Shown here: one piece after another, positions 4,151 through 9,700 of the stretch
How the letters are laid out: every line of letters starts with the position of its first letter
How positions within the stretch are numbered: the first letter of the stretch is position 1
From: Mytilus trossulus
Lineage: Eukaryota
Length of the DNA: 64,000 nt
Direction of reading: 5' to 3'
Assembly: GCF_036588685.1 (NCBI RefSeq)
Contig: NC_086382.1
Location: 44,665,552 to 44,729,551 of the forward strand
The notes under the pieces: generated by a model
What the model was told of the DNA's origin: nothing
What the model saw: only the letters and a program-made list of their open reading frames with translations
Databases searched by the model: none
Translations under genes and position numbers: made by a program

Positions 4151-4155
4151 TATAA

Positions 4156-6743
4156 CACGGGTGTCATTCGGTTTATCGAGAGAAATGATCGTGAAAGAAT
4201 ATCTAACGGCGGTCAAGTATTGAGAGACGATCGTGAAAGTTCTGGTAACGGATCGTGAAAGGCATTTAATCGAGAAGACATATGAAAGTTCAGTAAATAT
4301 TCTAATTTAGTTAATTACACAGACATATTTACGACAAAATAAAACTGTCTGTCAAAAGGGTTCAACATTATGATCAGTATGTCAAAATATCCAGTTTGAA
4401 AAGTACATAGTTATTACAAAACGACAAAAGGCAGATCGCTTCTCGACATTTCAATGACATAAAAAATGTAAACAAACACGATTTTTTTCACAAATTCGAC
4501 TAGATAAACTACGTTTATCAAAATAAGGGCATTGTATTTGAATTAATTAAACGGTTTTCATAGTTATTTTGTATAAATATAATCTGAAACTTGGTAAATA
4601 AAGAACTATCTACACAACATTGATTTTTTTGGATCGTGAAAGATTATGTACAGTATTTTTGAAGATCGTGAAAAGGATCGTGAAAGATCTGATGCTACGA
4701 AGACGTACACATTATTCTTCCATTATATGATAATTGATATTTGTTATTGATATTGAAAAAGGCTAAATAGGTCAACATCCTCAATAGGTTTAAGCCAACA
4801 AGTAGAATGTTGAAGAGCATGAAGGATCCACAACTCCAAAAAGTTGTACCAAATACGACTATAGTAATCCTTAGTTTTTCGAAAAATTCTAAGTTTTGTA
4901 AACGAGAAATTTGTATCAAATGACAACATTATTGATATTCATGTCAACATCAAAGTGTTGAATACTGGGCTGATGATACCATCGGGGACGAAACGTCCAC
5001 GAGCAGTGGCATCGACCCAGTGGTGTAAATAGTTATCAAAGGTACTAGGATTATAATTTAGTACGCAAGACGCGCAAATACATTAAAATTATTATTTGGA
5101 CATTTGTGAACATGTTGTTTGTAAAATAGTTGGATGATTGTGGGATGAAGTTTTTTTATTGTCATGTGAAGTACTCACTAACCATGAGTTATAGGATACC
5201 TATATTTTGTATATTGGATAATATACTAAATGTCAGTCATACAGGATTCACCTGACCCTGAATTTGCCTCATTTCATGGATGAAGATTCACTCACTGTAG
5301 TGGTCAAGTCCGTATCGAGGATTCGTTAAGCTTTAGGATGATTGTAAGGTGTATATTTTCGACTTGTGCAAGGTTTCAACTATCATTTAGACACGTTATT
5401 AGTTTGGTTTTTTAACTCACCTGGCCCAAAGGGTATCTAGTTTAAAATATGTGTGGCGTGACCCGGCCAACCAACCAAGATTGCCGCCACGGCTAAAAAT
5501 AGATTATAGGGGTAAAATGCAGTTTTTGGCTTATACCTAAAAAAAAACAAGCGTTTAGAGCAAATCTGCAAGGGTAAAGTTGTTAATCAGGTCAAGATCT
5601 ATCTAACAAGAATTTTTCAGATGAATCCGACAACCTGTTGTTGGGTTGCTGCCCCTGAATTAGTAGTTTTAGGAAAATTTTTGCTGTTTTTGGTTATTAT
5701 CTTGTATATTATTAAAGATAGAGATAAACTGTAAACAGCAGTAATGTACAGCAAAGTAAGAACTAAAAATAAGTCAACATGACTAAAATGGTCAATTGAC
5801 CCCCTAAGGAGTTATAATTGTCCTTTATAGTCAATTTAACAATTTTCATAAAATTTGTAAATTTTTACTAACATTTTCCACTGAAACTACTGGGCCAAGT
5901 TCATTATAGATAGAAATAATCGTAAGCAGCAAGAATGTTCAGTAAAGTAAGATGTAAAAACACATCACCATCACCAAAACACAATTTTGTCATGAATCCA
6001 TCTGCCTCCTTTGTTTAATATTCACATAAACCAAGGTGAGCGACACAGGCTCTTTAGAGCCTCTACAGTTTAACTTTCGAGGTAAAGTGTTGAATAGAAA
6101 AAAAAGATATTAGCTTTAATGTTCATCCTTATCAAAATTGTTACAGGCTTAAACCACTTGCAGATTTATCAAATGGTAAAAGAAACACTGATTTCTGATT
6201 ACTAGTATTAAGTCGGGTCACGCATTTTCTTTCACGATCGAAATAATACGTTGCCTGATCTTTCACGATCAAGATTGATGGAAATTCAACAAATTCATGG
6301 TTTTCATAAACAAATTAACGCTTTTAATCGAAGAAAATACTTTAATTTTACTGTACTATCAGATACACAAAAGATTAAATTTCAAATATGTCATGATATT
6401 CTGAAATATGACCATTATAGGTACAAAAAGCGAGTTATTTGTAATTAATTCTTAGACACGCATTGCGCCTTTTGTGTTTTTTCAAAAAGTACTTTCATAT
6501 TTTCTTTATCTTTTTTCACAGTTATGTTGAGGAAGTTGAACCATTTTGACAGACATATGTTTTTGTTCGGATTTGTTCAACGTTTTGAAAATTAAGCGAT
6601 TTTTTCAAAGATTCTGAACTAGAATGTACATTAAATGTCTTTCACGATCCGTTACCAGAACTTTCACGATCGTCGCTCAATACTTGACCGCCATTGGATA
6701 TTCTTTCACGATCATTTCTCTCGATAAACCGAATGACACCCGT
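4156..6743. mobile_element. Non-autonomous DNA transposon of about 2.6 kb with ~105-bp terminal inverted repeats, subterminal GATCGTGAAAG motif repeats and CACGGGTG...CACCCGTG termini. It is flanked by 5-bp TSDs TATAA (4151-4155 and 6744-6748), which fits a Transib-like element.
   Basis: Left TIR is 4156-4261 and the right TIR is 6639-6743. They are near-identical reverse complements: cacgggtgtcattcggtttatcgagagaaatgatcgtgaaagaatatc...ggatcgtgaaag. Further GATCGTGAAAG copies sit at 4625, 4660-4690, 6228 and 6262. There is no long internal ORF. The element is inserted in the tail of a SINE copy. Confidence 0.8.
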
Positions 6744-9700
6744 GTATAAGGCATGAAGATATATATAAATATATACTGTATAAGCACTAACTTTCTTGGG
6801 GTTAAAGTTTCGTGGTTTTGTATTCAAAAGTAAGTTCGTTGGGATTTAGTTTCGTGGTTTTTAAGTTGAGAAAAAAATTTGTTAATGTCACTTAATTATT
6901 GACAATACTCGATAAAACTAATCTAACTTTTGCCGTTCGGAAAATCAATAGTGCATTTAATAGTGACAGTGAGCTGTAGTTATGTTTTGTGAACTAAAAT
7001 TCATTCATTAATCAAATAAAGAAGGGTAAATATGTCTATCTTAAACTGGATTAAAAGTTCGAAAATACGTGAACCATCCTCCCCAGGATTACCTTCCCCG
7101 AGCCATGCAACCTCCGAGGATGATGCAATCATGATAGCAATTACGTGTATTTTTCAAGCTGAAGAAACTTTTATTGTATAGAGAATAATGCATGGCAAAA
7201 TTCGTATCATATGCCGTATCATCTCGAGATACCAATATCAGCCCGAAGGATGATATTGGTCGAAGGTGATACTATATGGTCACTTCTAGCCAAGCATCAG
7301 ATTGGACAACAGTGAACTAAATTTAATTTTCTATTGAATTGTTATTCTAATTTGTATTTATGTAGGGATTATATATTTTACTAAAACGTAACTTTATTTA
7401 TTACTTATTCCATAAAGTATATTTAATTCAGTTATATACAGTCCAAGTGTAACTCTCGAGACGGTCTTTCGAGCATTTGGGTTTGGACACAGGTTTCCTA
7501 CATTTTACCACTTTATTTAAAATGTAGTCTTTTGACCTCTGTTTAAATGGAGTTTGAACCGAGGTAACTCGTTTTTGTTGGTTTTTCCTGGCCGGCGGGA
7601 TCGTTGATGACAGATCCCATAATTTTGAACACAATTTACTAGCTTTTTCTTTTGAATTCTTTAATGAAAGTTTATTGATCGTGCATTGATACTTATGCTT
7701 CATGTATATTGTGTATATCAATTAGATTTATATTAATAAAATATGGGGTTCACCAGTATTGCTGGGCTATCGGCTATAAATAGTCCTTAGTATTTATTAA
7801 TATGCCTATCAATAGTAATTAGTAAAGTTGATACGGCATGTGATACGGATTTTGCCATGTTTTATACGCTTTATCATATATTTCAACAGAAGAGTATATA
7901 TATAAACTGCTTTTAAACCCTAGCATCTGGATGGTTACCTTCAGTTTTACTTTTGTCTTATTTTAACAGCTTTAAAATAACTGCTCAATTTTTCACCAGA
8001 ATCATCTGGGTTACCTTACAATTTGCGTACTGTTGTATTGAAAATATTTGGTTATGGTATTTTTTTAAACGCGCGTCTGATGTAACAAATTATAAGCCAG
8101 GTATCTTTGAGGAGTTTTTAAAATCAAAGAATCGATTCGTCCCTTGTGATATGTTCCACCCCTCAGTAATTATAAGCTTTATTGTGTTTTCTATAAACAA
8201 AAATTTTCACTTCAATTTTAGGTGTCGTTGTTTGTATAAAACATCATCCATTGTTTGTCCTATTTATTTGTTTCGTAACTTTGATTTGAAAATTAGACTT
8301 GCAGTCTTAAACTTGCAGTGAGAATGGTGTTTTTTGTGGTTTTTTGTTTGTGTGTGTTCTTTTTAGGGGGCCGGGAGTCCTATGTATGAAGCCCTCACTG
8401 TGACTTTGAGGTGCAAATTAGCAATACAAGCTGTTCCCTTGCTCTTGTGTAGGGGTTTTTTCTGCAAGTACTTGTTTTGTGTCATGTGGACGGATGGATA
8501 TTTTGGTTTTTCTATTTAATGACGAACGTTAGTTAAATTTTAAATATCTGAACAAATGTTGGTTTTTTCATTGAGAAAATAAAGTACCTCATGTCACTTA
8601 TATTATAATCGTTATCTTATAAGTAGAACGGAAGTTCTTTACACCACAGGAAAAGATTCATTCACTTATATGTAGCATCTTCTTCCTAGTAGCTTACTAT
8701 CCTGTACATTTTATTTAAATCAAAATTTAAAAAAAATGACAATTTGAAAAATACCTTAAAGACTGTGGTACAAGGGATAAGAAACCTGCATCAGGAGAAC
8801 AATTCATACACGACACAGCAAAGGGACATGACATGACAGTAACAGACATATGGATGAAGTATTGAAATCAAACAAACAAATCATTTTAGAACAGAAAAGA
8901 GAATATACTGCTACACCCACATCGTTTTACAATTTTTTTGGGAAAATGGCGTCTGGTAAACGTAATTAAGTTTTCAGAGAGATCATATGAAAGTTTACCT
9001 TTTGTGGTACTCTTTTTTTTATAACCATAAACCGCAATTTAAAGTAATTGAAGTAAATCAATATTAAAAGCTAGAATAACAAGTTGCTACACTTGTAGTC
9101 TGTAGTCTGGTAATATTCAGAATGTAGAGTTTTCAAGTAAGGATAGATGTATAGTTTCAGATGTATAACCTATCTCAGAAAGTTAATGAAAAGGACTTAC
9201 CATCAATGATGCGTGTTGATATACCTCCTTTGAAGATTACGTGTCACTGTAGTCGTGATCAACACTTGATGATATTGGAATTATCCATCATTAAAATGAT
9301 GATGATGAGGAAGAAGGAAGAGAAGGTGGTGGTGATCAGGAGGGAAAGGGGGTGAGGAAGAGAAGAAGTGGTATCATTGCCAAGACAGCTTTTCCTATCC
9401 ACCAAAGTTTAAATGACGAAAAACTATAATAACGGTATATACTAAAGTAGTAATATTTAAAAGGCCCAGACATGAAATATGAAGAGCTCGTTCTCAGATC
9501 GATTTAACATTGTAGTCTCGTCGTGTAAATGATGTTAATGGTGATACATGGCATGGGTTAGGTTCCAATTTCCAATATACAATGGAAAGAAATTGCAAGA
9601 CGATAGCATATATTAGTAAATATGGCGCCGGATCATATTAGCAGAAAAATATTTATATAGACAGAATAGGTCAGTCTGAAATATAAAATTATTAAAAAAA

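Follow-up and report, generated by a model that had tools for sequence, protein, structure and literature searches.

A non-autonomous DNA transposon with CAC termini, a 5-bp target-site duplication and subterminal 11-mer arrays in Mytilus trossulus

An element inserted into an older repeat

The stretch of Mytilus trossulus DNA that we have analyzed (the window hereafter, 64,000 nucleotides; all positions are counted from its first letter) contains a class II terminal-inverted-repeat DNA transposon, non-autonomous and 2,589 bp long. It is bounded by inverted repeats, it carries an array of a short motif inside each end, and it sits within an older interspersed repeat. The element is a new family of an ordinary cut-and-paste type that is already known. 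An earlier note on this DNA, made from the letters alone, had proposed an element of about 2.6 kb at this place, and that proposal is borne out with the boundaries set as in Table 1.

Table 1. Features of the element, of its motif arrays, and of the insertion site. Positions are those of the window; offsets are counted from the terminus of the corresponding end.
Feature	Position	Strand	Basis or offset
Older interspersed repeat, host of the insertion	3906-4155, resumes 6750-6760	-	Paralogs at 3467-3712 (+) and 60142-60389 (-)
Left target-site duplication, TATAA	4151-4155	.	Sequence and paralogous empty sites
Whole non-autonomous element	4156-6744	.	Inverted repeats, CAC junctions, no ORF >78 codons
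Left terminal inverted repeat, 115 bp, starts CACGGGTGTCATTCGG	4156-4270	+	Arm and three-end comparison
Three exact GATCGTGAAAG in left inverted repeat	4187-4197, 4229-4239, 4251-4261	+	+32, +74, +96
Extra subterminal inverted-repeat block with TGTCTGTCAAAAKGGTTCAAC	4332-4366	.	Partner 6535-6569, 80% complementary
Left inner motif cluster	4632-4642, 4664-4674 (1 mismatch), 4676-4686	+	+477, +509, +521
Right inner motif cluster	6229-6239, 6260-6270	-	+506, +475 from right terminus
Right terminal inverted repeat, 115 bp, 4 mismatches vs. left	6630-6744	-	Arm and three-end comparison
Three exact motifs in right inverted repeat	6639-6649, 6661-6671, 6703-6713	-	Motif scan
Right target-site duplication, TATAA	6745-6749	.	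Sequence and reconstructed empty site collinear with paralogs

Where exactly does the element end? The raw inverted-repeat arms returned by the computation are 4155-4270 and 6630-6745, that is, 116 nt on each side that are 97% complementary. When we compare three ends, the two of this element and the left end of a second copy that we describe below, the similarity stops exactly at CAC, and the bases that precede it are A, T, and A. The outermost A/T pair of the 116-nt arms is therefore a chance extension, and the true arms are 115 bp long with 4 mismatches. The earlier note had recognized the presence of the inverted repeats, but its length of about 105 bp falls short of the measured one. The termini read 5′-CAC...GTG-3′, as had been noted, and they are seen at both ends as well as at the left end of the second copy, in all cases as CACGGGTG.... 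A 25-nt terminus is found in only two places of the 64-kb window, which are the two ends of the element, where 0 are expected.

The element is flanked on both sides by TATAA as a direct repeat, and the chance of a 5-bp match between flanks is about 0.002. If the element and one TATAA are removed, the sequence that is left can be aligned across the junction to two paralogs of the host repeat with no gap, and these paralogous empty sites have one TATAA or TATGA each. The target is TATAA within GTACATGACATATAA/GGCATGAAGAT, and the expected empty allele is ...ACATGACATATAAGGCATGAAG.... The duplication is fixed at 5 bp because the similarity to the second copy ends exactly at CAC, and its length is that of one complete insertion (n = 1). 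Moving the terminus by one base to obtain a duplication of 3 bp (ATA) or 4 bp is ruled out by the A, T, and A found before CAC. The 5-bp TATAA duplication had been proposed before, and it stands, with its right copy off by one from the 6744-6748 originally assigned to it.

The gapless alignment with the paralogous empty sites also agrees with the earlier proposal that the element arrived after the host repeat. That repeat had been described as a SINE with the element in its tail. Insertion into an older repeat holds, but the tail does not: the tRNA-like A and B boxes, which are a reading by eye only, are on the minus strand, and so the insertion would sit on the 5′ side of the repeat. Rfam and ARAGORN give no tRNA call on the host repeat, and it is not found in the part of a bivalve SINE library available to us.

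Subterminal arrays of an 11-mer and a second copy

The motif that is repeated inside the ends is the 11-mer GATCGTGAAAG. Allowing at most one mismatch, it has 11 matches in the element (10 exact and one with 1 mismatch), of which 6 are on the plus strand at the left end, including the inexact one, and 5 are on the minus strand at the right end, in agreement with the at least five copies per end of the earlier note. The remainder of the 64-kb window adds a single match with 1 mismatch. By chance, 0.6 matches are expected, and none of 100 shuffles reached 12.

The placement of the motif is as regular as its number. Counting from either terminus, we observe it at +32, +74, and +96, and then again between about +475 and +530, and its orientation relative to the end is always the same at both ends. 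The sequence flanking the right inner cluster is unlike that flanking the left inner cluster, yet the 11-mer is exact. We consider the 11-mer a putative transposase-binding site.

The second copy is on the public contig JACSEI010003429.1; it is the sole extra copy found, and it consists of a left end only. About 610 bp of this left end are 93% identical, with the same motif map as in the left end of the element, including the three motifs of the left inner cluster at the corresponding places. Its flank is unrelated to that of the element, the similarity being lost exactly at CAC, and the copy is flanked by TTAGT (...ATATTAGT). At least one more copy of the family exists elsewhere.

As a matter of architecture, long inverted repeats with 11-mer arrays are of a CACTA/hAT style, and they are not described for Transib elements.

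Coding capacity and the search for a transposase

The longest stop-free stretch in the element is 78 codons, and a comparison of its six frames with the Pfam families reports no match at E ≤ 1. The element is non-autonomous because it has no ORF longer than that and no Pfam match in any frame. The 64-kb window includes no autonomous copy. A protein search using the joined stop-free translations of both 550-bp ends resulted in 4,797 word candidates, 0 of them significant. No transposase linked to these ends was found in the window, in the protein search with ORF fragments, or with Pfam.

We have also searched for the ends themselves. Across 185,579 bacterial and archaeal genomes there are 0 matches to the terminus and 0 to a 33-nt double motif, and the terminus has 0 matches in viral contigs. 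The motif pair does have 20 matches in viral contigs, which are unrelated: nearly all are one conserved phage stretch that holds two copies of the motif and has no inverted-repeat similarity. In a full-text literature search the terminus has no match, and the matches to the 11-mer are qnr-type PCR primers. The supplementary sequences of a bivalve transposon-library paper have neither the terminus nor the motif. A search with a major vault protein exon gave 5 candidates, the best of them a Logan contig that is 96% identical in protein but only 76% in DNA, and so belongs to a relative rather than to the source species.

Proposed superfamily and mechanism

RAG1, the recombinase of vertebrate antibody genes, is derived from a Transib-related enzyme. 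We propose that the element is a non-autonomous one mobilized in trans by an enzyme of the CACTA/Mirage/Chapaev/Transib group, in which a Transib-type (RAG1-like) enzyme would be the best fit because the duplication is 5 bp. We give this reading an even chance. Elements in this clade have in common 5′-CA..TG-3′ termini and duplications of 2-5 bp (PMC12730594); those of CACTA/Mirage/Chapaev are of 2-4 bp (bioRxiv 10.64898/2026.08.26.747230), and Transib and RAG-like elements are characterized by a 5-bp duplication and an invariant 5′-CAC (PMC1131882; PMC7204232). The element has the 5-bp duplication (n = 1) and 5′-CAC at both termini. It resembles the non-autonomous Transib elements (insect Transib-N, Drosophila Hopper and Kodama) in these two features, in its CAC...GTG ends, in being non-coding, and in the mobilization in trans that we propose here.

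In other respects the element differs from Transib. The Transib inverted repeat is about 37-38 bp (PMC1131882; bioRxiv 10.64898/2026.08.26.747230), whereas that of the element is 115 bp, and it is accompanied by arrays of the 11-bp motif that reach about 530 bp inward from either terminus. The Transib inverted repeat is RSS-like, with a CACAATG-like heptamer, a spacer of 22-23 bp or 12 bp, and an A-rich nonamer AAAAAAATC (PMC1131882). The heptamer of the element, CACGGGT, matches CACAATG (Transib) and CACAGTG (RSS) only at CAC, and reading its terminus as CACNGTG requires an insertion of 1 nt. An A-rich nonamer is absent about 22-23 bp past the heptamer, where the element reads ATGATCGTG (positions 30-38). 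Position 31 is the last base of the closest A-rich tract, GAGAAAT, and the first 11-mer, which starts at +32, lies where the nonamer would be expected. HzTransib has been reported to have little similarity to the nonamer, which is thus not strictly universal. The target preference of Transib is reported to be GC-rich (PMC1131882), while the TATAA and TTAGT flanks observed here are AT-rich, a weak indication with n = 2.

The Transib-like assignment of the earlier note is thus supported by the 5-bp duplication and by CAC, but not by the nonamer, the GC-rich target, or a short inverted repeat; similarly, the ends that it described as RSS-heptamer-like are so at CAC and not beyond. The other foldback or MITE families in the window that it had offered as parallels (37370-37508, 36917-37134, and 41667-41862) lack a 5-bp duplication, their flanks being of the TA type, and we discard them as such. 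Moreover, Transib itself is labile in both duplication length and inverted-repeat sequence, and these are said to back a classification by transposase homology but not to override it (bioRxiv 10.64898/2026.08.26.747230). Also against a Transib-type enzyme, a survey of 39 mollusc genomes reported only one Transib ORF (PMC10294476).

Which other transposases could have moved an element with these ends? The En/Spm TNPA binds 12-bp motifs, and arrays of subterminal repeats in a fixed orientation at both ends are the hallmark of En/Spm. The element could be a non-autonomous member of CACTA/Mirage/Chapaev, the sister of Transib, with an atypically long 5-bp duplication and a transposase acting on the 11-mer arrays. 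With En/Spm (CACTA) and Chapaev/Mirage it shares the CA(C)...(G)TG termini and the subterminal motif arrays, presumably transposase-bound, which here are in fixed orientation at both ends; a CACGG terminus together with 11 motifs in two clusters per end agrees with what is expected of such elements, 5′-CAC(TA/NG) plus arrays. The 5′-CA..TG-3′ termini and the 2-5 bp duplications common to the wider clade (PMC12730594), and the lability of the duplication length in it (bioRxiv 10.64898/2026.08.26.747230), also speak for this possibility. On the other hand, the duplication is of 5 bp and not of 2-4 bp, and the terminus is CACGG and not CACTA or CACTG; we see a CACTA/Mirage/Chapaev origin as unlikely. 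A further difference from the known elements is that all motifs of one end are in one orientation. Short subterminal repeats to which the transposase binds are also classic for hAT elements of the Ac/Ds type, and the inverted repeats of hAT elements are usually 10-25 bp. A non-autonomous element of the hAT5 type would explain the subterminal motifs, and also the 5-bp duplication, which exists in some hAT families (PMC12730594, citing Repbase Reports), and hAT ranks with the richest superfamilies of mollusc genomes (PMC10294476). However, the third terminal base in hAT is reported to be always G (PMC1131882, Fig. S7 legend), and the element has C at that position in 3 of 3 ends; with inverted repeats of 115 bp, in contrast to the short ones of hAT, this origin is quite unlikely.

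The 5-bp duplication and the 5′-CAC, both invariant in protostome RAG-like elements, of which non-autonomous derivatives have been reported (PMC7204232), bring in yet another candidate origin, by deletion from a RAG-like (RAG1L-RAG2L) transposon such as those of oysters, mussels, and nemerteans. The consensus of the protostome RAG-like inverted repeat is CACTWMCAAACKTYKBB, with a conserved AAA at positions 8-10 (PMC7204232), but the element, CACGGGTGTCATTCGGT, has GTC at positions 8-10 and agrees only in CAC. In addition, the element has no remnants of RAG1L or RAG2L, and the supplementary sequences of PMC7204232 include neither the terminus nor the 11-mer; the 8-mer CACGGGTG does have matches there, but these are internal and unrelated. 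We regard this derivation as extremely improbable. Finally, CAC ends and a 5-bp duplication may have come together by coincidence in some other, or undescribed, superfamily of DNA transposons. Several features of the element are atypical for each of the candidates named, and classing non-autonomous elements by their ends and duplications is acknowledged to be provisional (bioRxiv 10.64898/2026.08.26.747230); but a known clade already fits CAC and 5 bp, nothing demands a new one, and we find such a coincidence very unlikely. Under the Repbase rule, an element is placed in a classified family when the two share the duplication length and align at terminal positions 1-11 with no more than 1 mismatch.

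The element encodes nothing and must be mobilized in trans, and we propose that its movement proceeds as follows. A DDE transposase would come from an autonomous relative located at another place of the genome and, probably by means of a sequence-specific DNA-binding domain, it would occupy the GATCGTGAAAG sites. These are mirror-imaged, with three sites in each of the 115-bp inverted repeats and a further two or three per end at a depth of about 475-530 bp. The transposase would then pair the ends and cut at the boundary between the flank and CAC. The excised DNA would be inserted with a 5-bp stagger, and the repair of that stagger would produce the TATAA duplication. A more specific proposal, which we find rather doubtful, is that of a Transib lineage in a non-insect invertebrate with differently built ends, in which a bare CAC and arrays of 11-bp sites, the first of them at the place of the nonamer (+32), would be combined with an En/Spm-like recognition of many subterminal sites and an AT-rich integration.

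As a clean non-autonomous transposon whose insertion site is verified, the element can serve the annotation of repeats in this genome and, by being younger than its host repeat, it is a marker of relative age. If a Transib with En/Spm-like ends turned out to be true, it would bear on the origin of heptamer/nonamer recognition in the CACTA/Mirage/Chapaev/Transib clade. The element would gain in importance if its autonomous partner turned out to be a Transib or RAG1-like transposase, Transib being apparently very rare in molluscs (PMC10294476). A Transib with long, multi-site ends and AT-rich targets would also add to what has recently been reported on the lineage of RAG1, in which the recognition of ends and the choice of targets are labile.

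Boundaries and order of insertion

The terminal inverted repeats and the subterminal motif array described in the earlier note are both real (see the table). Within the 64-kb window, the two ends of the element are the sole places with the 25-nt terminus CACGGGTGTCATTCGGTTTATCGAG, against no occurrence expected by chance. A second inverted block indicates that, to a depth of about 530 bp, the two ends are still inverted repeats in degenerate form.

Because one extra A/T pair (4155/6745) prolongs the inverted repeat, the window copy alone would also permit a 3- or 4-bp duplication, with the terminus moved out by one base. 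A second copy settles this point. Scanning public metagenome contigs with the terminus gave a single match, JACSEI010003429.1 (1,257 bp), so at least one further copy of the element exists. This contig spans the left ~610 bp of the element (93% identical) with all six motif positions, and its flank reads ...ATATTAGT immediately before CACGGG. At the three available junctions the base before CAC is A, T and A, and the likeness ends exactly there. This comparison rules out the shorter duplications and places the element at 4156-6744 (2,589 bp).

When the element and one TATAA are removed, ...ACAGTACATGACATATAAGGCATGAAGAT is left, which aligns without gaps across the junction to ...ACAGTACATGATATATGAGACATGACGAT and ...ACAGTACATGATATATAAGGCATGGAGAT in two other copies of the host repeat (84% identical, and 78% on the other strand). 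Thus, the 5-bp duplication was demonstrably left by the insertion and is not a chance match (expectation for such a flank match ~0.002), and the host repeat predates the insertion. The duplication had been noted before, with its right-hand coordinates off by one.

The host repeat had also been called a SINE, with the insertion in its tail. The order, host repeat first, stands; the tail is not supported. In its first two copies, the minus strand holds what we read as tRNA-like A and B boxes. No tRNA is called in the repeat by either ARAGORN or Rfam. The insertion lies ~95 nt from this tRNA-like segment, on its 5′ side if the minus-strand reading holds. Those ~95 nt are also conserved, a feature not usually seen in a simple tRNA-derived SINE.

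Coordinates of the repeats in the window; motif copies are given as distances from the nearer terminus
Feature	Position	Description
Inverted-repeat pair	4155-4270 and 6630-6745	116 nt, 97% complementary as computed
Second inverted block	4332-4366 and 6535-6569	80%
Target-site direct repeat	4151-4155 and 6745-6749	TATAA
Internal direct repeat	5711-5788 and 5903-5979	78% identical
GATCGTGAAAG, outer copies	start +32, +74, +96	both sides
GATCGTGAAAG, inner copies, left	start +477, +509, +521	one mismatch at +509
GATCGTGAAAG, inner copies, right	start +475, +506	
Host repeat	3467-3712 (+), 3906-4155 (+), 60142-60389 (-)	three copies, ~250-310 bp, 78-84% identical
MITE pair	36917-37134 and 41667-41862	~200 bp, 84% identical, ACTGTGGATTCATT inverted ends
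Foldback	37370-37508	139 bp, CACAGTG...CACTGTG ends, TA on both sides, no 5-bp repeat; inner 30-nt arms 100% complementary
Tandem repeat	11098-11797	263-bp unit, 2.7 copies, 99% identity
Minisatellite	24398-25671	47-bp unit, 27 copies, 93% matches
Adjoining tandem arrays	39212-40361	periods 135/261 bp and 161 bp, 3.9 copies each

Interior and motif array

The longest stop-free stretch of the element in any frame is 78 codons, and a search of its six frames gives no Pfam match at E ≤ 1; the element is therefore non-autonomous. Besides the internal direct repeat, its interior has no similarity to the rest of the window. Nothing useful came from translated end fragments as query, from viral and prokaryotic genome scans, from a full-text literature search for element sequences, or from transposon-library supplements.

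The 11-mer GATCGTGAAAG has 12 matches with at most one mismatch in the window against 0.6 expected, a number reached by none of 100 shuffles. All but one are inside the element (six on the plus strand near the left end, five on the minus strand near the right end), each in one constant orientation relative to its own end. In the inner clusters the 11-mer is exact although the surrounding sequence differs between the two ends, the pattern that would be expected of a conserved binding site and not of neutral inverted-repeat sequence. Most of the phage contigs L001-L020 (IMG/VR) have in common a conserved 38-nt stretch, GATCGTGAAAGAATGCTCATGGCTGATGATCGTGAAAG, with two copies of the 11-mer; this stretch, probably part of a coding region in one phage family, has no relation to the transposon.

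The element has the anatomy of a cut-and-paste DNA transposon that is moved in trans. Most likely, a transposase encoded elsewhere would bind the mirrored arrays, synapse both ends, cleave where the flank meets CAC, and insert the element with a 5-bp stagger. We infer the binding role of the motif, the cleavage chemistry and the identity of the enzyme.

Other repeats and genes

The window is eukaryotic (~31% GC). It contains exons (~25000-45000 and ~50800-64000) of a major vault protein gene (for example, the minus-strand peptide ...PRPEVV near 41.3 kb) and a CDC5L (Myb-domain) gene, called from translations of the window with the Vault Pfam seen on the matched proteins, which makes this genic, intron-rich, invertebrate-like DNA. 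The minisatellite lies near a vault-protein exon of coiled-coil-like sequence. The identity of the 263-bp units indicates a very recent tandem duplication, and the ~160-bp period of the adjoining arrays may resemble that of the satellite-carrying MITE-like elements described in bivalves.

The MITE pair and the foldback had been offered as Transib-like parallels. The MITEs start ACTGTGG/ACTGTGA, and the flanks of the better-preserved copy are compatible with a TA duplication, with no 5-bp repeat at either copy. Given such TA-type flanks, neither they nor the foldback are a sign of Transib activity. Several TTTCGTGG motifs are found inside the MITE pair, and two similar (A/T)GTTTCGTGGTTTT motifs lie a short way to the right of the element (6793-6861). 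The closest public fragment is a Logan contig (SRR29152234), which holds the orthologous intron/exon piece of the vault protein gene of a related species; against 41070-41933 it is 76% identical in DNA, and its protein identity is 96%. The contig carries unrelated sequence at the place of the second MITE, which suggests that this MITE insertion is lineage-specific.

Superfamily placement

Transib transposons, according to Kapitonov and Jurka, have a 5-bp duplication, an invariant CAC, GC-rich targets, and a 38-bp inverted repeat that includes the heptamer CACAATG and the nonamer AAAAAAATC (PMC1131882). Protostome RAG-like transposons have CAC, invariably a 5-bp duplication, and the inverted-repeat consensus CACTWMCAAACKTYKBB (PMC7204232). 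The Transib-like ends proposed in the earlier note hold as far as the duplication and CAC, the two simplest of these features. But the element departs from the rest: its heptamer position is CACGGGT, its positions 30-38 are ATGATCGTG, its target is AT-rich, and the RAG-like consensus is unmatched. Terminus and motif are both absent from the sequence supplements of PMC7204232.

In their length and their motif arrays, the inverted repeats are more like the ends of En/Spm-type or hAT-type elements. Against this, CACTA/Mirage/Chapaev duplications are 2-4 bp (bioRxiv 10.64898/2026.08.26.747230) as opposed to 5 bp here, and hAT termini have G at position 3 (PMC1131882) where the element has C; hAT5 families do produce 5-bp duplications (PMC12730594). 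The safest home is Kojima's CACTA/Mirage/Chapaev/Transib clade, with 5′-CA..TG-3′ termini and 2-5 bp duplications (PMC12730594); if one lineage of that clade has to be named, Transib is the first choice. The 2026 preprint shows that even bona fide Transibs differ in the length of the duplication and in the sequence of the inverted repeat, and it warns that these features should not override classification by transposase homology (bioRxiv 10.64898/2026.08.26.747230). Hence the Transib assignment is plausible but unproven, and we would give it an even chance. "Transib-like" is a reasonable provisional annotation, which a transposase is needed to settle. The observation itself is real and clear-cut, but its object is ordinary in kind: a non-autonomous DNA transposon that makes up a new family.
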